A DNA stretch of 64,000 nucleotides from Candidatus Microgenomates bacterium (GCA_049523135.1 JBEKNE010000001.1:287770-351769), one strand, 5' to 3'. Shown: positions 19,495 to 28,011, counted from the first letter of the stretch. The notes: generated by a model from the sequence alone, not told the origin. Translations and numbers: made by a program.

Positions 19495-20181
19495 ATGGCT
19501 ACTCAGAAGTTCGTTCCTGTAAGTGAAATCGATTCCAAACTTCTTCCGAAAATTCAAAATTACCTTCCAAGGTATGAGAACGGCATTTTTGTCGGTCTCG
19601 GAAAAACCGGGAAAGATTCGTACATTCGTGGATTCGTCTGCGATGTCGAAGATGACGGAACGATCGTAAAAGTCAGGTACGATGCCCTCAAGAAATTTGA
19701 TGGGCTTGTCGGCGAAGACGGTCATGCGACTCCAAGCGCGGTTATGGTGGTTGCGGAAAGTCGTGCAGACGGCATCTATCTCTATTGTGCCCCTGAGTAT
19801 CGCGTCTTTATCTATGACCATGTTAATAATCAACTTGGTGTTACAGTAGAAGGCTTTGCGGGCGGATTTACGGAAAAAGGTAAGGAACCGGCGGAGACGG
19901 CATTGGAAGAGGTTCTTCAGGAACATGGTATTGTTGTCGGAGCCGTTTGGCCTATTGTGCGAATCGGATATGCCTCGGATAATCGAGCCATGACTGAGAC
20001 GTGCATTGAATATTATCTTGGTATGTTTGAACGCCAGGTCGGCCAAGATCTACAAGGGGATGAAGTTATCCAAAAAACCGAAGCAATTCGTGTCGATCAC
20101 TTTGTTCCCGGTCTTGACGGTATCGTCGATACGGCTTACGCTTTCTTGGTTTCGCACCTCAAGCTTGTCAAGCCAATGTAA
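19495..20181 (+). CDS. Nudix-fold protein with degenerate Nudix box; GC-rich, probably horizontally acquired
   Basis: Strong AAGGAG RBS 8 nt upstream of ATG. The segment GGFTEKGKEPAETALEEVLQEHGI aligns position-by-position with the Nudix box but has K, E and Q at three catalytic positions. GC content is clearly higher than in neighbouring genes. Confidence 0.6.
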   Translation: MATQKFVPVSEIDSKLLPKIQNYLPRYENGIFVGLGKTGKDSYIRGFVCDVEDDGTIVKVRYDALKKFDGLVGEDGHATPSAVMVVAESRADGIYLYCAPEYRVFIYDHVNNQLGVTVEGFAGGFTEKGKEPAETALEEVLQEHGIVVGAVWPIVRIGYASDNRAMTETCIEYYLGMFERQVGQDLQGDEVIQKTEAIRVDHFVPGLDGIVDTAYAFLVSHLKLVKPM

Positions 20182-20463: not shown

Positions 20464-21255
20464 ATGCAGACAGTTATTTTGTGCGGCGGCAAGGGCACAA
20501 GAATGAAAGAAGAGACGGAATTTCGTCCCAAGCCACTGGTTGAGATAGGTGGTATACCAATCCTCTGGCATATTATGCAAATCTACATGTACTATGGTTA
20601 TAACGACTTCATCTTGGCGTTAGGATATAAGGGAAACATGATCCGCGACCTATTTAAGGAGTGGTATACAAATACGAACGATTTCTCCATTGATATGTCT
20701 ACCGGTAAGACTACGGTTTTGAGTAATAGGCAGAGAAATTTTAAAGTCACTTTGGTAGAGACCGGGGACACACCCGATAAAGAAATCTTAACCGGTGAGA
20801 GAATTTTAAGGACAGCCCCATACATTAAAGGTGATGAATTTATGCTTACCTATGGTGACGGGGTTTCCGATATCGATATAAAGAAAGTCGTAGACTTTCA
20901 TCATAAGATGGGAACTCTGGCTACTGTTTCAGGTGTCCATCCCAAATCCAGATTCGGCCTTGTCGAAAGAGATAATAAAACAGGACTGGTTACTCAGTTT
21001 AGTCAGTATCCTGTCATGCGTGAGTATATAAGTGGAGGTTTTATGGTTTTTAAAAGAAAAGCCTTGGACTATTTTACAGACGGTCAGATGGAAGAAGGTT
21101 TGGGTCATCTTGCTGAAGACAAGCAGTTATCAATGTATATTCACGAAGGATTCTGGAAGGCTGTTGATACATATAAAGAATTGGAACAACTTAATCAGCT
21201 TTGGTATGATGGCCGTCCTTGGGCCGTATGGGAGAAAAAAGATAATCAGAAATGA
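20464..21255 (+). CDS. rfbF: Glucose-1-phosphate cytidylyltransferase
   Basis: Near-collinear similarity to Salmonella RfbF/Yersinia DdhA: MQTVILCGGKGTRMKEE..RPKPLVEIGGIPILWHIM ... LTYGDGVSDIDI ... GGFMVF. Confidence 0.9.
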   Translation: MQTVILCGGKGTRMKEETEFRPKPLVEIGGIPILWHIMQIYMYYGYNDFILALGYKGNMIRDLFKEWYTNTNDFSIDMSTGKTTVLSNRQRNFKVTLVETGDTPDKEILTGERILRTAPYIKGDEFMLTYGDGVSDIDIKKVVDFHHKMGTLATVSGVHPKSRFGLVERDNKTGLVTQFSQYPVMREYISGGFMVFKRKALDYFTDGQMEEGLGHLAEDKQLSMYIHEGFWKAVDTYKELEQLNQLWYDGRPWAVWEKKDNQK

Positions 21256-22319
21256 AGGAAGACCTTGGAAAATTTTTTAAGGGTAAAAAAGTCCTTATAA
21301 CAGGTCATACCGGCTTCAAGGGAGCTTGGCTTGCCGAAGTTCTCACTCTCTGGGGAGCCAAAGTAATCGGAGTATCTCTGGAGCCATACACGGAACCCAA
21401 TCTCTACACTGTTCTTAAACTTGGTGAAAAGGTAAATAATTATTTTGCCGATATCACGGATCAAAGGAGGCTGGCGGATATTTTTGCAAAAGAACAGCCG
21501 GAAATTGTTTTTCACTTGGCAGCCCAAGCAATAGTCAAGATAAGTTATGAGGATCCTCTCCGTACATTTAGGGCAAATGTCATAGGATCTGCAAATGTAC
21601 TTCAAACAATCCGCGAGACAAAATCGGTTAAAACCGGAGTAATGATAACTTCTGACAAGGTTTACGAAAATAAAGAGTGGGTACATCCGTACCGTGAGAT
21701 AGACAGGCTTGGAGGGCACGATCCGTACAGTGCCAGTAAAGCCGCAGCGGACATTATTGATCAGTCTTTCATAAAATCTTTTTTCACTGAGGAAACTGAT
21801 CCCTTTGTCGGTATTACCCGTGCGGGAAATGTCATTGGAGGTGGGGATTGGTCGCCTTACAGAATTATTCCGGACGTGGTACGTGCAATTTACGAAAAAG
21901 GCGAAGCTGTCGTAATTCGAAACCCTCAGTCAATTAGGCCTTGGCAGTTTGTTTTGGAGCCGCTTTCCGGTTATCTTCTTCTTGCCAAAAAACTATTTGA
22001 AGGTGACAGGTCATTAATAACCACTTGGAATTTTGGTCCGCATCAGGGCAATTTTGTAACTGTTTCTGAGTTGGTTGAAGCCGGAGTTAAAATTCTCGAC
22101 AAGGGTTCATACAAAGTTGTGCCCGATAAGAGTTTTCACGAATCAACATTTTTAAAACTCGATATTTCCAAAGCCCACGATCTCCTTGGCTGGAGTCCAA
22201 AACTGGATATCAAAGAAACATTGGGATACACATACGATTGGTATAAAAATTATTATGAGCATCTGAAGTCTCCAACTGAATTTACCGATAAGCAGATAAC
22301 CGAATATTTTTCTAAATAA
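21252..22319 (+). CDS. rfbG: CDP-glucose 4,6-dehydratase
   Basis: KVLITGHTGFKGAWL Rossmann motif, YSASKAA catalytic region, RAGNVIGGGDW and IRPWQFVLEPLSGY motifs shared with RfbG/DdhB. Start overlaps the rfbF stop. Confidence 0.9.
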   Translation: MKEDLGKFFKGKKVLITGHTGFKGAWLAEVLTLWGAKVIGVSLEPYTEPNLYTVLKLGEKVNNYFADITDQRRLADIFAKEQPEIVFHLAAQAIVKISYEDPLRTFRANVIGSANVLQTIRETKSVKTGVMITSDKVYENKEWVHPYREIDRLGGHDPYSASKAAADIIDQSFIKSFFTEETDPFVGITRAGNVIGGGDWSPYRIIPDVVRAIYEKGEAVVIRNPQSIRPWQFVLEPLSGYLLLAKKLFEGDRSLITTWNFGPHQGNFVTVSELVEAGVKILDKGSYKVVPDKSFHESTFLKLDISKAHDLLGWSPKLDIKETLGYTYDWYKNYYEHLKSPTEFTDKQITEYFSK

Positions 22320-22852
22320 TGATTTTCACTCCAACAAAAATTGACGGAATGTTTGAAGTTACTCTTGAACCCCATGAAGACGAAAGAGGTTATTTCAGAC
22401 GTATGTTTGCCGAAGAGGAATTTGCAAAGGCGGGGATAACCGATTTCAAAATAGTCCAAATTAATCAAGCTTATACAAAATCTGCCGGGGTTTTGCGGGG
22501 ACTTCACTGGCAGACGGAACCAAAACTGGAAGCGAAATACTTCCAATGTTTAAATGGAGAGATCTTTGATGTTGTGGCAGATACAAGACTGGATTCAAAA
22601 ACTTATGGTGTCTGGGCGGGTTTTCATCTCAAGAGTGACGAAAAGAAACTTTTGTTTATTCCCGGAGGCGTTGCCCATGGATATGAAACATTAACAGATA
22701 ATTGCATGGTTCAATATATGGTTTCGGAATTTTATTCGCCTGAGGTAGAAAAAGGTATCAGATGGAATGACCCCACATTTAATATTGAATGGCCTCTTGA
22801 ACCCACCTTCATGTCCGAAAAAGATAAAAATCTGCCGGATTTTAAAAAATGA
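22319..22852 (+). CDS. RmlC-like cupin sugar-nucleotide 3,5-epimerase (predicted to act on the CDP-4-keto-6-deoxyhexose)
   Basis: About 177 aa; ERGYFRRMF and RGLHWQ motifs of the dTDP-4-dehydrorhamnose 3,5-epimerase family. Confidence 0.8.
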   Translation: MIFTPTKIDGMFEVTLEPHEDERGYFRRMFAEEEFAKAGITDFKIVQINQAYTKSAGVLRGLHWQTEPKLEAKYFQCLNGEIFDVVADTRLDSKTYGVWAGFHLKSDEKKLLFIPGGVAHGYETLTDNCMVQYMVSEFYSPEVEKGIRWNDPTFNIEWPLEPTFMSEKDKNLPDFKK

Positions 22853-23718
22853 AAAATAAAGTATTGATATTGGGTTCTCAGGGAACACTTGGACAATCTT
22901 TGGTTAATGAATTTCAAAAGAATGGGTATGAAGTGGTTGCATGGGATAGGGGTGACTTGGATGTCACTGCTCCCGACGCTCCAAAAAAGATTAAGGATCT
23001 CCATCCTCAAATAATAATTAATGCTATTGCCTATAATGCGGTAAATAAGATGGAGACTGATGAAAATGAGAGAAAAATTGCGTTTCTGATTAACGCTAAA
23101 GCCCCCGGAATTCTGGCAAATACAGCGAAAAGTATTGGAGCGATTTTTGTTCATTATTCCACGAGTTATGTATTTCCCGGAGATAAAAAAGAAGGGTACA
23201 GGGAAACAGACACTCCGGGCCCTGTAGATATTTATGGTGAATCTAAGCTGGAAGGCGAGAAAGCAGTAGAAAAAGTTGGAGGCAAATATTATATCTTAAG
23301 GCTTTCCCGTCTTTTTGGTGTAAAAGGTGCAAGTGAGATGAGCAAAAGAACATTCGTGGATATTATGATTACCGAGATTGACAAGAGTGAATTGGAAGTT
23401 GGCGACACGGAGGTTAGTTCACTGACCTACGCTCCCGACTTGGCGAAGGTGACAAGAAAAATTGTCGAAGAAAATAAACCTTATGGCATCTACCACTCCG
23501 CAAACGAGGGACTGTGTACCTGGTATGAATGGGCAAAAGAAATTTTCAAAGATTTGGGTAAAGGACCAAAAGTAATTCCCGCAAAACACACTCTAACACC
23601 AGGTGGAGTAAAACATCCCCAATATTCGGGTCTTATAAATACAAAACTTTCCAAGCAAAGAACATGGCAGGAAGCTTTGAAGGAGTTTATAGAAGCGGAG
23701 TATAAAAATCAAAAATGA
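22849..23718 (+). CDS. RmlD-like NAD(P)H-dependent 4-ketoreductase (dTDP-4-dehydrorhamnose reductase family)
   Basis: N-terminal Gly-rich dinucleotide-binding motif ILGSQGTLGQ, a YSTSYVF/YGESK catalytic region, and RmlD-like length. Confidence 0.8.
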   Translation: MKNKVLILGSQGTLGQSLVNEFQKNGYEVVAWDRGDLDVTAPDAPKKIKDLHPQIIINAIAYNAVNKMETDENERKIAFLINAKAPGILANTAKSIGAIFVHYSTSYVFPGDKKEGYRETDTPGPVDIYGESKLEGEKAVEKVGGKYYILRLSRLFGVKGASEMSKRTFVDIMITEIDKSELEVGDTEVSSLTYAPDLAKVTRKIVEENKPYGIYHSANEGLCTWYEWAKEIFKDLGKGPKVIPAKHTLTPGGVKHPQYSGLINTKLSKQRTWQEALKEFIEAEYKNQK

Positions 23719-24305
23719 CTGAAAAAACAAGCGGTTTTGATGATGGTGATGACCAAAAAGTTATCGACATCTTAAATAAATGGGACGGAGGGCCACTTTC
23801 CGACAAGCTTTTTACAAAGTTTGCGGAGATGGCTCCCCAGACGAGTGTAATAACGGTGGTGTTCAGGAAAGATGGAGATATGCTTGAGACACTGCTTCTG
23901 AAAAGACCTGAAACCGATCCGATTTGGCCTGGAGTTTTGAACTTGCCCGGAAAAATGTTCAGAAAAATTGATTTTGTGAGGGAGGATAACCATCCTGAGA
24001 GGGGTCCTATCGGGAGGATTGAGAAAGACGAAATAGGTTCAAATTTTACCCAAAAACCTGAATTTGCCGGAGTGGCTTTCCAGGACACAAAACGCGGTCC
24101 GACAATCGTTTTAGTTTATGTAATTAATGAAGACGTAAAACTACCGAAAGGTGGAGAATGGCACAATGTGGATGAACTTAAGAATTTACCCAATTTGATA
24201 GAAACGGAACGGGTTGCTATTGATGTGGCTCTAAAAAGTCATTTGGCAGGTTCAAACCACTTACCTTCTTTATATCCTGTGGAATTCCAGAAGAAATCGG
24301 CCTGA
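23715..24305 (+). CDS. Hypothetical protein, possible degenerate Nudix-like sugar-nucleotide hydrolase
   Basis: Last gene of the translationally coupled CDP-sugar operon. The WPGVLNLPGKMFRK segment resembles the start of a Nudix box but lacks canonical catalytic residues. Confidence 0.4.
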   Translation: MTEKTSGFDDGDDQKVIDILNKWDGGPLSDKLFTKFAEMAPQTSVITVVFRKDGDMLETLLLKRPETDPIWPGVLNLPGKMFRKIDFVREDNHPERGPIGRIEKDEIGSNFTQKPEFAGVAFQDTKRGPTIVLVYVINEDVKLPKGGEWHNVDELKNLPNLIETERVAIDVALKSHLAGSNHLPSLYPVEFQKKSA

Positions 24306-25210
24306 CTCACTTTTTTGTAGAGCCAGAGTGGAGCTCTATGGTAGCAAAGTCTGCCGAATTGATATCCCAGCCAACCAAAGGCCAGCTGGAAAAATGCAGT
24401 GGGTAACATAAGCGGTTCCTCTTTTAGTACATTGATTAGCAGATATTTGGCGTACGAAGCTCCGCGCGCCTGGTCTCCTCCTTTTCCTAAATTTAAAGTT
24501 TGGTGCCATTGTTTTCTGTACATTCCGGTATCAAAATGCCTGACAAACTCTTTTGCCGGGGAATAGTTATGTGAGTGTTCGACAACCGCATCGGCAGCGT
24601 AAGCGACTTTATAACCCTTTTTAAGCAGCATCGCTACGGCGATAGTGTCTTCTCCCGAGAGAGTCCATCTGAATCCGCCGATGTCGTCAAGAGCTCTATT
24701 AAGATAGGCGGCACAGGAGTCCGAACAAAAAATTGTATAGACACCATATTTTTTTGCATCACCTATACCTCTAATATTACTTTCTTCCGGAAAATTAAAT
24801 TTTCTTCCCAGCCTGGCAATAACATTTGCCCCCGGGTGGGCTACTTGCCTTGCATAAGAGACTGCGGCTTTCCCATCGATAATAGGTTTGACTAATTTCG
24901 AAAGCATTTCCTTATCCTTCGGGTAGGCATCAGGCGTCATCATGACGACAATATCGGTTCCCAGTTTTTTTCTGCAAAGCTCGCGGGCACTTCCATGATT
25001 CATTTCAATCCTTGGAATTACTAAAGTGTCGGCTTCCATCTTTTTTGCCAACTCAATCGTTCCGTCATTGGAACTGGAGTTAAAAACAAGAACTTTTGGT
25101 CTAAGTGGCGAATTCAAAAGCGGAGGTAAGCATTTATCAAGATGACGGATATCTTTAAATGTGATAACGGCAACTCCAATACTCATCTTTTTAGGCCGTT
25201 TTTTGTCCAT
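24239..25210 (-). CDS. GT2-family glycosyltransferase
   Basis: The N-terminal GT-A domain begins at SIGVAVITFKD and the TDIVVMMTPDAYP segment lies within it. Start set to the internal ATG (MDKKRPKK...). Confidence 0.7.
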   Translation of the reverse strand: MDKKRPKKMSIGVAVITFKDIRHLDKCLPPLLNSPLRPKVLVFNSSSNDGTIELAKKMEADTLVIPRIEMNHGSARELCRKKLGTDIVVMMTPDAYPKDKEMLSKLVKPIIDGKAAVSYARQVAHPGANVIARLGRKFNFPEESNIRGIGDAKKYGVYTIFCSDSCAAYLNRALDDIGGFRWTLSGEDTIAVAMLLKKGYKVAYAADAVVEHSHNYSPAKEFVRHFDTGMYRKQWHQTLNLGKGGDQARGASYAKYLLINVLKEEPLMLPTAFFQLAFGWLGYQFGRLCYHRAPLWLYKKVSQADFFWNSTGYKEGKWFEPAK

Positions 25211-25275
25211 AATTGTGATTAATATTATACAACGTTGCGTAGGAGGGTATCGGTAGGGTATCATTTCTCTAGCGT

Positions 25276-26226
25276 ATGAGTACGAAAAAGGTGGGTATTT
25301 CAGTCGTAATTGTCAGTTGGAACACCAAGGAAATAACAGATACATGCTTGGCTTCAATGAAGAAGGCTGTGGATTATGTTAAGGATAGGGCAAATGTCGA
25401 GGTAATTGTGGTTGAAAACGCCTCAGAAGACGGGTCTTTTGAGATGATTGCTAAAAAACACCCCTGGGTTAAGTTAAAGTCCTCGGGTGCCGACTTAGGT
25501 TATGGTAAAGGAAATAATTTTGGATATAAACTTTGCGATTCAAAAAATGAATATCTGCTTCTTCTTAATAACGACGCTTATGTAAATGAAGATACCCTGG
25601 CCAGATCGTTGGATTTTATGGCTGGTCACCCCGATTGTGGCGTACTTGGCTGCCAACTTAGATTTTTAGACGGCAGATTCCAACCCTCGGCCGGTTTCTT
25701 GCCGACCCCGGCTTCGGTTTGGTCCTGGATTTGGGGGTTAAGCCTCGTTCCGGGAGTCAAATTGTTTTTCAAACCATTTCATCCTGCCGATAAGGATTTC
25801 TTTAAAAAAGACCGTGAAGTTGGTTGGACAATGGGAGCTTTCTTGTTTATGAAAATGGAGGTCTTTAAGGATAGCAAAGGCTTTGATGAAAACTTCTTTA
25901 TGTATATGGAAGAAGTGGAATGGTGCAGACGCGCCAAAAAAGCAGGTTATAGAATCTTTTATACGCCAAGTTTCTGGGTGACCCATGTAGATAAGGCAAG
26001 TGCGATGGGTAAACCCGAAGAGCTTGCAAAGATCTTTAGGCGCGAGATTTTAGGGTTTGTTTATTACCTAAACAAAAATTACAAAAACCAATCTTGGTGG
26101 TTTATTCCGGCGATTAAGGCCGGAATTGCCTTGCGTTTATTGGCTTTTACTTTGTTAGGTAATAAAATGAGGCAAGACGCTTATAAGCAAACGCTTGAGC
26201 AATTCGGGAAAGCGCTTTCAAACTAA
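25276..26226 (+). CDS. GT2-family glycosyltransferase (rhamnosyltransferase-like)
   Basis: ISVVIVSWNT ... VVENASEDGS ... LLLNNDAY motifs, the DxD region, and a C-terminal amphipathic/TM tail. Confidence 0.8.
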   Translation: MSTKKVGISVVIVSWNTKEITDTCLASMKKAVDYVKDRANVEVIVVENASEDGSFEMIAKKHPWVKLKSSGADLGYGKGNNFGYKLCDSKNEYLLLLNNDAYVNEDTLARSLDFMAGHPDCGVLGCQLRFLDGRFQPSAGFLPTPASVWSWIWGLSLVPGVKLFFKPFHPADKDFFKKDREVGWTMGAFLFMKMEVFKDSKGFDENFFMYMEEVEWCRRAKKAGYRIFYTPSFWVTHVDKASAMGKPEELAKIFRREILGFVYYLNKNYKNQSWWFIPAIKAGIALRLLAFTLLGNKMRQDAYKQTLEQFGKALSN

Positions 26227-26235
26227 ATTTAATAT

Positions 26236-28011
26236 ATGACAGAACTTAAAAAAGTGGCACTTGTTACGGTTAACTTTGGTAAACCTGATGACACTTTGGA
26301 TCTTCTTAAAACCGTCAGAACTCTTGATACAAAGGGGTTGGATTTTAAGATGGTCGTGGTTGATAAAACTCCGGATACATGGATTGGTGACGCAATCCCC
26401 AAGGATTTTCCTGATATCGAAATAATTCAGGCCGGTTGTGATAAAGGTTTTACCGGTGGGTACAACCTCGGAATGAGATATGCTGCCGCATGGGGTGCAG
26501 ATTATATAGCTATTATCAATAACGATACACTGATTGGGGATCCTCAGATTCTCAAAAAATTTATTGAGGTGTTGGACGAAAATAGAGACGGGGTTGTGTC
26601 GCCAAAAATATATTTTGCAAAAGGCTACGAATTTAAAGACAGATATGCAAAAAAGGATTTGGGACATGTAATTTGGTATGCGGGAGGGGAATTTGATTGG
26701 GCAAATGTTCGCTCGGTTCACAAGGGAATTGATGAGGTTGATGAAGGTAAATATGACGCAGTCACAAAGACCGGTTTTGTAACCGGATGTTGTTTTATGG
26801 TGAAGCGGCATACTCTGGAAAAAGCCGGATACTTCGATGAAGACCTGTTTGCTTATTTTGATGACAACGATTGGCAACAGCGAATCTTAAAAATTGGAGG
26901 AGCTCTTTATTATCATGGCGGAACGCATATTTATCATAAAGTTTCCCAGACAATGGGGATTGGCTCCGAACAGACGGATTATTTATTAACAAGGAATAGA
27001 CTCTATTTCACTTTTAAGTATGCAAAACCCCGTGTTAAATTCGCGGTTTTTAGGGAGATGATAAGACAGCTTGTAACGGGTCGGCCTGCACAGAAAAAAG
27101 GCGTTATGGATTTTATTAAAGGAGTTAAGGGACACTCTCCTTATAAAATTCCGTCAGAAGGACTCTACCATTATCCTGTCAGGCTTTCTGTAATTGTCTC
27201 CAGTTATAAAACAAGTGCTCTTACGTCTGAGCTTCTAAAGAGCATTTATAGGGAGGGATCCGGTTTTGATCCAAAGCAGGATGAAGTTATTGTTTTGGAT
27301 AACGCAACCGATGACGACTTTTCAGTTGTTACTAAAAATTTTCCACAAGCAAGATACCTTAGGAATGTTGTTAATAAGGGTTTTGTCGGCGGAAACAATC
27401 GACTTTTTGAATACTCGCGCGGTGAGCTGGTCTTGATGTTTAATACAGATATAGAAGTAAAAGGTAACAGTATTGGGGAACTCATTAGGACTAGCCGCGA
27501 GTTTAATGATGAGGCAGTGTTAACCGGTAGACTTCTTTTCCCTGACGGAAGCCCGCAGGATTGTTGCTTTAATTTACCTACCATACGCGGTGTTCTTAAG
27601 GAATATTTATTAAAGCAAAAAGGCAGTTTCTTTATGTTTTTGCCGAAAGGAGATAATCCTGTAAGAGTTGAGGGTGGAGTAATGGCCGACTTTTTGATTC
27701 CCCGCAAGGTAATAAACAAAATTGGGGTATTGAATAGGAAGCTTTTTATGTACTTTGAAGACATTGACTATTGCAGAAGACTTAAAAAAGCTAAAATTCC
27801 GGTCTATTACATTCCAAAGGCTGAGTTTTATCATCACCACGGAGCAACAGCCAAGAAGATTGGTAAGCCGGCGATTAATACACAAATAATTGAAAGTTCA
27901 AAGATCTATCACGGTAAGTTCCGTTATGCTCTTATTACGGCCGCGTTGTGGTTTGTGCAAAAAGTAAATATTGTTACATCTCCAAAATCGAGGTGGGAAA
28001 AAGATAAATAA
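26236..28011 (+). CDS. Tandem two-domain GT2 glycosyltransferase
   Basis: Two successive GT-A modules (VALVTVNFGK...IAIINNDTL and LSVIVSSYKT...VLMFNTDIEV), each with its own DxD-like segment. Confidence 0.8.
   Translation: MTELKKVALVTVNFGKPDDTLDLLKTVRTLDTKGLDFKMVVVDKTPDTWIGDAIPKDFPDIEIIQAGCDKGFTGGYNLGMRYAAAWGADYIAIINNDTLIGDPQILKKFIEVLDENRDGVVSPKIYFAKGYEFKDRYAKKDLGHVIWYAGGEFDWANVRSVHKGIDEVDEGKYDAVTKTGFVTGCCFMVKRHTLEKAGYFDEDLFAYFDDNDWQQRILKIGGALYYHGGTHIYHKVSQTMGIGSEQTDYLLTRNRLYFTFKYAKPRVKFAVFREMIRQLVTGRPAQKKGVMDFIKGVKGHSPYKIPSEGLYHYPVRLSVIVSSYKTSALTSELLKSIYREGSGFDPKQDEVIVLDNATDDDFSVVTKNFPQARYLRNVVNKGFVGGNNRLFEYSRGELVLMFNTDIEVKGNSIGELIRTSREFNDEAVLTGRLLFPDGSPQDCCFNLPTIRGVLKEYLLKQKGSFFMFLPKGDNPVRVEGGVMADFLIPRKVINKIGVLNRKLFMYFEDIDYCRRLKKAKIPVYYIPKAEFYHHHGATAKKIGKPAINTQIIESSKIYHGKFRYALITAALWFVQKVNIVTSPKSRWEKDK

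Follow-up and report, generated by a model that had tools for sequence, protein, structure and literature searches.

Within a 64-kb stretch of DNA from Candidatus Microgenomates bacterium (GCA_049523135.1), hereafter the window, i.e. the whole 64,000 nucleotides that were analyzed, we identify a five-gene operon that probably specifies a cytidine diphosphate (CDP)-glucose-derived 6-deoxyhexose pathway finished by CDP-adapted enzymes of the RmlC and RmlD families, each catalytic step and the nucleotide itself being read from sequence comparisons. In the proposed scheme the product of gene 1 would convert cytidine triphosphate (CTP) and glucose-1-phosphate to CDP-D-glucose, which that of gene 2 would convert to CDP-4-keto-6-deoxy-D-glucose. 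Gene 3's enzyme, from a clade of the RmlC fold apparently specialized for CDP-sugars, would then exchange protons at C3 and C5 by means of its His63/Tyr133 pair, and reduction at C4 by the gene 4 enzyme would fix the product as a CDP-6-deoxy-L-hexose. The gene 5 protein, which contains a degenerate Gmm-like box, probably binds or hydrolyzes the CDP-sugar for control of its pool, in the manner of gmm following gmd and fcl.

Organization and conservation of the operon

All five open reading frames (ORFs) lie on the plus strand between window positions 20464 and 24305, as had been proposed. They comprise a DdhA/RfbF-type glucose-1-phosphate cytidylyltransferase (gene 1: 20464..21255, 263 amino acids (aa), TIGR02623), a DdhB/RfbG-type CDP-glucose 4,6-dehydratase (gene 2: 21252..22319, 355 aa, TIGR02622), an RmlC-family (cupin) NDP-4-keto-6-deoxyhexose epimerase belonging to a ddhA/B-linked clade (gene 3: 22319..22852, 177 aa), an RmlD-family NAD(P)H-dependent 4-ketoreductase (gene 4: 22849..23718, 289 aa, TIGR01214/PF04321) and a protein of the Nudix fold whose Nudix box is degenerate (gene 5: 23715..24305, 196 aa, recognized by fold comparison). 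A preliminary description of this DNA had coupled ddhA/ddhB to RmlC- and RmlD-type genes, with which both the profile matches and the overlapping ORFs agree. It had also described every overlap as one of 4 nucleotides (nt); stop and start codons indeed overlap at all four junctions, as ATGA (4 nt) at three of them and as TAATG (1 nt) between ddhB and the rmlC-like gene. The five genes most likely constitute one translationally coupled operon of this member of Candidatus Microgenomates (Patescibacteria). In scans around the operon, promoter-like sites were fewer than in shuffled sequence, and none of the plus-strand terminator candidates was convincing. At its distal end, gene 5 overlaps a convergent minus-strand ORF for a family 2 glycosyltransferase (GT2; 24239-25264) by 67 nt (window 24239-24305), and the C-terminal tail encoded in this overlap is weakly conserved, with a predicted local distance difference test score (pLDDT) below 50.

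The nearest homologs come from named Candidatus Microgenomates and Patescibacteria. A search of relatives for the gene order, envisaged in the preliminary description, recovered all five genes in the same order in L010/L011 (RmlC 78% identical) and in L012 (RmlC 65% identical), and in the latter the operon is conserved together with three GT2 genes despite a different upstream context.

Predicted formation and dehydration of CDP-glucose

The product of gene 1 is matched best by the TIGR02623 family, with 251.8 bits (E=6.7e-75) over the full length of the profile (1-256 of 255). The next family scores 66 bits, giving TIGR02623 a lead of more than 185 bits over any other nucleotidyltransferase model, and rmlA_long reaches 33.8 bits only. 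The match to RfbF of S. typhi (PDB: 1tzf) is strong (E=1.6e-58), with conservation of the GGxGTR motif and of the equivalents of K25 and R111. The protein is also 42.9% identical over 266 aa to HS41.21 of the C. jejuni HS:41 pathway, a CTP-specific enzyme that forms CDP-glucose and does not accept UTP, ATP or dTTP (PMC12369002); this and the other comparisons with HS:41 enzymes used the protein sequences printed in the supplement of that paper. Taken together, these matches sustain the original assignment of gene 1 as a cytidylyltransferase of the RfbF type and argue against a thymidylyltransferase. A literature search turned up nothing on how RfbF contacts cytosine.

In public records of identical contigs, gene 1 is called with a start 13 codons downstream, omitting window positions 20464-20502, and the resulting 250-aa protein lacks the nucleotide-binding motif MQTVILCGGKGTR. 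The 263-aa ORF aligns from position 1 of both TIGR02623 and 1tzf, and we take its start to be the correct one because the GGxGTR motif, which aligns from the first residue of the profile, is missing from the 250-aa version.

The dehydratase encoded by gene 2 scores 446.1 bits against TIGR02622 (cut-off 278.45), with the dTDP-glucose (dTDP: deoxythymidine diphosphate) dehydratase model as the runner-up at 109 bits. It is 46.3% identical over 341 aa to the characterized, CDP-glucose-specific HS41.20, which makes CDP-4-keto-6-deoxyglucose (PMC12369002), and is predicted to yield CDP-4-keto-6-deoxy-D-glucose. Homologs of gene 2 are numerous, falling into 2616 clusters of 50% identity at E<=1e-30.

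A putative nucleotide signature in the epimerase

Gene 3 encodes a clear member of the RmlC family, with 196.7 bits against PF00908 and 164.9 bits against TIGR01221 (cut-off 155.75). The catalytic His63, Lys73, Tyr133 and Asp169 are conserved in alignments, and the closest solved relative is RmlC of M. thermautotrophicus (PDB: 1ep0; E=5e-41). It also shares 32.1% identity (E=1.5e-30) with HS41.19, an enzyme annotated as a dTDP-4-dehydrorhamnose epimerase and proven to act on a CDP-sugar, in which it exchanges H3 and H5 (PMC12369002). We predict that gene 3 epimerizes C3 and/or C5 of a CDP-4-keto sugar.

An alignment of RmlC-family genes from every collected locus revealed two positions (in the numbering of the window protein) that split ddhA/B-linked from rmlA/B-linked epimerases, namely residue 28 (Arg versus Glu) and residue 71 (Glu versus Gln). 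With further canonical genes added from a scan of viral contigs, residue 28 was tabulated against gene neighborhood in 185 genes of the family. Glu28 occurs in 46 genes with rml neighbors only, in none with ddh neighbors only, in 2 with both (each embedded in the rml set) and in 35 with neither; the corresponding counts for Arg, Lys or Tyr are 0, 60 (55 Arg, 4 Lys, 1 Tyr), 1 and 40. Hence 59 of the 60 ddhA/B-only-linked genes have Arg or Lys28 and 46 of the 46 rmlA/B-only-linked genes have Glu28. Position 71 co-varies with this division, and across the 106 informative loci a single Tyr is the only exception to the split between Glu28/Gln71 and Arg(Lys)28/Glu71. This contingency, though clean, comes from a biased sample, since one pattern used in the viral scan, the source of most Glu28 sequences, contained that very Glu, and the patterns of the metagenome scan were motifs of the subfamily to which the window RmlC itself belongs.

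The gene 3 protein carries Arg28/Glu71, as does HS41.19 (which reads DERGYFERYFC...PPFCETK); RfbC of E. coli has Glu28/Gln71 and 1ep0 has Glu28. The check for nucleotide-discriminating residues suggested in the preliminary description thus led to a pair that tracks linkage to ddhA/B and is shared with a proven CDP epimerase. Additionally, Cys31 is typical of ddh-linked epimerases, being found in 92% of their clade of 96 genes, and HS41.19 has it as well. In RmlC of M. tuberculosis, Phe26 stacks on the thymidine as part of the Phe26/Tyr138 stacking (PMC3639364), and residue 28 is situated two positions past this Phe, on the strand that enters the active site of the partner subunit. An Arg at this position would be a suitable donor to N3/O2 of cytosine, and Glu71 could serve as acceptor for the amino group at N4.

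In a neighbor-joining tree of the family (midpoint-rooted, without bootstrap), the rmlA-linked epimerases (E. coli RfbC and those of L042, L046, L168 and L170) form one clade, and gene 3 falls outside it in a sub-clade whose members all have an RmlD-type neighbor wherever the flank extends far enough to reveal it. On the whole, adjacency to ddhA/B, Arg/Lys28 with Glu71 and homology to HS41.19 unite gene 3 with a clade of CDP-4-keto-6-deoxyglucose epimerases, and it has neither an rmlA/B association within the window nor the Glu28/Gln71 pair of dTDP-4-dehydrorhamnose 3,5-epimerases in the strict sense. The residue 28/71 rule, the most useful by-product of this analysis, offers a simple way of distinguishing epimerases of the CDP type from those of the dTDP type by sequence.

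The reductase and the configuration of the product

Gene 4 encodes a member of the RmlD family with 228.6 bits against PF04321 and 225.2 bits against TIGR01214, a marginal pass of the cut-off of 224.05. Structures of RmlD are recovered with PDB: 1vl0 at E=1.7e-45 and PDB: 3sc6 at E ~1e-45, and the catalytic motif STS...YGESK, supplying the Ser/Thr-Tyr-Lys triad, is present. An insertion of 6 residues at residues ~158-163 is common to other ddhA-linked RmlD-type proteins and is missing from 13 of 14 rml-only RmlDs, a small sample, and from E. coli RfbD. BLASTP found no match between gene 4 and HS41.18, the reductase of the HS:41 pathway. The enzyme is predicted to reduce C4 of the epimerized CDP-4-keto-6-deoxyhexose. 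To our knowledge, the members of the RmlD family characterized so far reduce L-lyxo-4-hexuloses, i.e. 3,5-epimerized substrates.

For the product, an L-rhamno or L-talo configuration is the most likely, with L-altro possible. The earlier proposal of an analog of L-rhamnose or 6-deoxy-L-talose was too specific, given that stereochemistry is not derivable from sequence and that the epimerase class of HS:41 yields 6-deoxy-L-altrose. Indeed, the main rival within the CDP framework retains the pathway and alters its outcome, with mono-epimerization or choice of another epimer leading, for example, to CDP-6-deoxy-L-altrose, CDP-6-deoxy-D-gulose or D-allose; we regard this as unlikely, albeit worthy of serious consideration. 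The precedent for it is direct: HS41.18 alone forms CDP-D-fucose, and with the epimerase present it forms CDP-6-deoxy-L-altrose (PMC12369002), so that an RmlC-like enzyme which exchanges both C3-H and C5-H nevertheless gives an isolated product that is the C5 epimer only, because the C3-selective reductase selects it. Moreover, mono-epimerases of the RmlC fold cannot be separated by sequence since they keep the same catalytic residues, and the PDB matches of gene 3 include a 3-epimerase (4hn0) and a 5-epimerase-type enzyme. Against this stand the membership of gene 4 in the RmlD family (TIGR01214, 1vl0), whose characterized representatives act on the L-lyxo-4-hexuloses mentioned above, its lack of detectable similarity to HS41.18, and the absence of a mutase from the window.

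A bolder version of the CDP-6-deoxy-L-hexose pathway can be offered tentatively, as a conjecture that may well fail in one of its parts. Here the operon would make CDP-beta-L-rhamnose or CDP-6-deoxy-L-talose, previously undescribed, by way of a CDP-adapted RmlD-type reductase; the Glu28->Arg/Gln71->Glu change would be a general thymine-to-cytosine switch; and gene 5, with its Nudix fold, would encode a new Gmm-like hydrolase or sensor of CDP-sugars. The literature searched yielded no mention of CDP-L-rhamnose, CDP-rhamnose or CDP-6-deoxy-L-talose. If this version is true, many public annotations of dTDP-4-dehydrorhamnose 3,5-epimerases beside ddhA/B name the wrong nucleotide.

The Nudix-fold protein

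The product of gene 5 was assigned to the Nudix alpha/beta/alpha fold by fold comparison only. Profile searches gave no Pfam match at E<=10, PF00293 included, and a search of the PDB with the sequence profile of its family found no Nudix protein. Its Nudix box is degenerate (R101-I-E-K-D-E106-I-G), with R101 and E106 as the sole invariant residues, and departs from the canonical GX5EX7REUXEEXGU, the Glu at +1 being replaced by Ile. The "Nudix-like" label previously attached to this gene is therefore apt for the fold and does not extend to a canonical box or a match to PF00293. We found 21 homologs, the two with a source name being from Microgenomates; several share contigs with homologs of the epimerase, and in all relatives with a locus that we inspected, gene 5 lies directly 3' of the reductase. 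The pattern of losses in its box is like that in E. coli Gmm (RLTMAELG), a GDP-mannose (GDP: guanosine diphosphate) mannosyl hydrolase, and its position in the operon is that of gmm in the gmd-fcl-gmm arrangement of E. coli colanic acid (GDP-L-fucose), a system which differs in its nucleotide (GDP versus CDP). By analogy, gene 5 is a candidate CDP-sugar hydrolase or binding protein that might control the pool of the sugar.

Just upstream of the operon, an ORF of 228 aa (19495-20181, plus strand) shows a weak match to the NUDIX domain that is below threshold (PF00293, E=0.0034) and a degenerate box (GGFTEKGKEPAETALEEVLQEHG). The syntenic relatives L010-L012 lack this ORF, and BLASTP shows no relationship between it and gene 5.

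Distribution of related loci

We scanned ddhB loci from one genome per species, seeding the search with a diverse DdhB alignment, and obtained 70 loci with sufficient downstream sequence. The ddhA gene is present in 62 of these, and an RmlC-like gene adjoins ddhB in 18 (26%), including representatives from Pseudomonas, Pontibacter, Leptolyngbya, Methanoculleus, Acidobacteria and Bacteroidales. None of these 18 RmlC-like genes is paired with an RmlD-type reductase; they are accompanied by a C-methyltransferase together with another short-chain dehydrogenase/reductase (SDR), by an oxidoreductase of the DRL type, or by a DegT enzyme. A scan of metagenomes was seeded with relatives of gene 3; the matches listed are all at most 54% identical, with the closest relatives lying outside the sample. 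Among these matches, at least 38 loci have a related RmlC-like gene with at least 2.5 kb of upstream sequence, and ddhA/ddhB-type genes were seen in 30 of 38 and rmlA in 1 of 38. The full combination of ddhA/B, epimerase and RmlD-type reductase was observed in L013, L095, L096, L131 and the clade of the window itself; in L013, from a metagenome-assembled genome of a Patescibacterium, DdhA scores 317 bits (above the cut-off), DdhB 474 bits and RmlD 271 bits. Two further loci, L042 and L046, carry ddhAB and rmlABCD sets side by side. Given the HS:41 precedent (PMC12369002) and the RmlC-like neighbors in the ddhB scan, the arrangement is less unusual than had been claimed. The pairing of ddhA/B with an RmlC-like gene is widespread, and the dTDP-based names of RmlC and RmlD genes beside ddhA/ddhB are probably wrong on the nucleotide.

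In a recurrent cluster, ddhA and ddhB are joined by genes for a C-methyltransferase (Methyltransf_13/14), for an RmlC-like epimerase and for a reductase; we found it in Pseudomonas, Acidobacteria, Methanoculleus and contigs resembling Patescibacteria (L013, 2911-7415; L072, 6222-10696; L044, 1350-5914; L064, 6983-9837; L095, 1975-7534). Like the window operon, these clusters begin with DdhA/DdhB and have an epimerase of the Arg28 type, and L013 and L095 also have an RmlD-type reductase; the window operon, being devoid of the C-methyltransferase, represents the minimal version. The likely product of the ddhA-ddhB-C-methyltransferase-RmlC-like cluster is a branched sugar resembling vinelose, namely a 3-C-methyl-6-deoxyhexose linked to CDP, and the cluster may correspond to CDP-linked sugars of this type such as CDP-vinelose of Azotobacter. 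In Pontibacter (L020, 8826-10172) and Leptolyngbya (L061, 8825-10123), an oxidoreductase of the DRL type (GFO_IDH_MocA/DRL_cat) takes the place of an SDR reductase after ddhA-ddhB-RmlC-like, which makes a further uncharacterized variant. Finally, L096 (2966-7397 of a 720 kb metagenome contig) contains ddhA, an SDR that matches DdhB/RmlB poorly (43 bits to GalE) and an RmlC(Arg28)-RmlD pair, with an RmlB-like gene (220 bits) transcribed divergently; it may solve the dehydratase step of the same pathway in another way.

Assessment of alternative pathways

Several observations weigh against the CDP-6-deoxyhexose pathway as reconstructed above. The TIGR02623 score of gene 1 is below the NCBI equivalog cut-off of 300.25, and genes 3 and 4 clear the NCBI equivalog thresholds of the dTDP enzymes, by a small margin. 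The distribution of residues 28 and 71 is subject to the sampling bias already described, and the interpretation of residue 28 depends in part on Glu29 in the S. enterica RmlC structure, its counterpart, which we take to be the acceptor of thymine N3-H. The comparison of gene 5 with E. coli Gmm is not significant (hhalign, E=0.17), for which reason the role in pool control is put forward as a hypothesis, and the catalytic His of Gmm, part of a Gln-His pair, is not evident in gene 5. Lastly, genes for RmlA/RmlB or for the E1/E3 enzymes of 3-deoxygenation could lie elsewhere in the genome, beyond the 64-kb window.

In one alternative, genes 3 and 4 would serve an ordinary dTDP-L-rhamnose pathway with RmlA and RmlB encoded elsewhere, DdhA/DdhB making a CDP-4-keto sugar for a separate purpose and their adjacency being fortuitous. 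The equivalog matches of genes 3 and 4, the public records named accordingly, the juxtaposition of ddhAB with rmlABCD in L042 and L046, and the confinement of the rmlA/B search to the window are consistent with such a scenario, which we nevertheless consider very unlikely. It is at odds with the overlapping genes and their conserved order in relatives, and with the occurrence of Arg28/Glu71 in 0 of 46 rmlA/B-only-linked genes; even in L042 and L046, the RmlC adjoining rmlA carries Glu28. It would also leave the operon without a consumer for CDP-4-keto-6-deoxyglucose. That gene 1 is not CTP-specific, with the whole pathway running on UDP, dTDP or another nucleotide, has in our view hardly any likelihood: its sub-threshold score and the promiscuity of RmlA-type enzymes (PMC9415975) are outweighed by the wide lead and full-length alignment of TIGR02623, the 43% identity to an enzyme that rejected UTP, ATP and dTTP, an unambiguous CDP-glucose-type dehydratase (446 bits), and an epimerase signature that is that of the CDP enzyme.

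Genomic context and the glycosylation cluster

Pfam annotation of the genes called across the window found no DegT/E1, FNR-type E3, RmlA, RmlB or Glf domains, and each ORF that lacks a Pfam match and has sufficient length for E1 or E3 encodes a polytopic membrane protein, with 7 to 10 predicted transmembrane segments. The absence of E1/E3 genes asserted in the preliminary description thus holds for the window. Two genes upstream of the operon were considered as RmlB and RmlA and rejected, being GalE (386 bits) and GalU-like (260.7 bits; equivalog cut-off 326.8). Other genes in the window encode tRNA synthetases, SecA, TGT, RF-1 and FtsEX.

Immediately downstream are three GT2 genes matching Glycos_transf_2 of Pfam (24239-25264, minus strand; 25276-26226, plus strand; 26236-28011, plus strand), which also adjoin the operon in L010/L011 and L012. 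The adjacent GT2 enzymes probably use the CDP-sugar for a surface glycopolymer, a view suggested by the conserved synteny. The same synteny agrees with the earlier proposal of the CDP-sugar as their donor; that proposal overstated the use itself, for which synteny is the sole basis. In total, the operon is followed by roughly ten GT2 genes, one GT2-GtrA fusion, one GT4, one flippase, YfhO, and more than a dozen GT-C genes of the PMT_2 type. The region from 28666 to 63720 includes the GT2-GtrA fusion (polyprenyl-phosphate glycosyltransferase type), about a dozen tandem PMT_2/PMT GT-C genes, the flippase of the Wzx type, one YfhO and two YfhO/PTPS-like genes, the GT4 gene and several genes for polytopic proteins without a Pfam match. 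This content suggests lipid-linked extracytoplasmic glycosylation that is large in scale for a bacterium with a small genome. Interspersed among the glycosyltransferases are a gene of the tRNA m1G methyltransferase family (28013-28642, minus strand), whose position is kept in L010 and L012, and one for a DHH/DHHA1 phosphoesterase (33539-34522, plus strand). The operon heads a cluster of ~40 kb in which about ten genes for GT2 enzymes are joined by at least a dozen for GT-C enzymes (PMT_2/YfhO-type), and it offers a concrete, testable candidate for the sugar that characterizes a surface glycopolymer of Microgenomates.

Comparison with known pathways

Other established systems share parts of the proposed pathway. 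In the CDP-3,6-dideoxyhexose pathways of Salmonella and Yersinia (DdhA-D with Abe/Prt/Tyv or AscE/AscF), the initial DdhA/DdhB steps are the same, and the ascarylose branch ends with an epimerase and a reductase. The window operon differs in having no gene for E1 (DdhC, of the DegT fold) or E3 (DdhD) in the window, and deoxygenation at C3 is hence not expected. The dTDP-L-rhamnose pathway (RmlA-RmlB-RmlC-RmlD) presents the same four-step chemistry, with the folds and catalytic residues of the third and fourth steps in common; the operon is distinguished from it by first and second steps of the CDP type, the Arg28/Glu71 epimerase and the 6-residue insertion in the reductase.

The closest parallel is the C. 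jejuni HS:41 CDP pathway, which Simons, Narindoshvili and Raushel demonstrated in vitro in 2025, and in which a mutase finally yields furanoses (PMC12369002). The first three steps share their logic with the operon, at 43%, 46% and 32% identity, and reduction at C4 follows in both. The window operon departs from it in the reductase, which is of the RmlD family and non-homologous to HS41.18 at the BLASTP level, in having a co-conserved Nudix-fold gene, and in its Patescibacterial host. Neither an HS41.18-type reductase nor the flavin adenine dinucleotide (FAD)-dependent pyranose/furanose mutase that typify the CDP-fucofuranose and 6-deoxy-altrofuranose pathways of the HS:41 type was found in the window; as there is no FAD mutase, the sugar would be expected to stay a pyranose, and the configuration of the product is likely to be unlike that of HS:41. 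The RmlD-type reductase, the lack of a mutase and the conserved Nudix-fold gene recur in Microgenomates and in related contigs. The chemistry of the operon should not surprise specialists, since it extends a type of pathway demonstrated in 2025. Relative to HS:41, the RmlD-type reductase, the lack of a mutase, the Nudix-fold gene and the Patescibacterial host set the operon apart, and together define a variant of a proven type of pathway.

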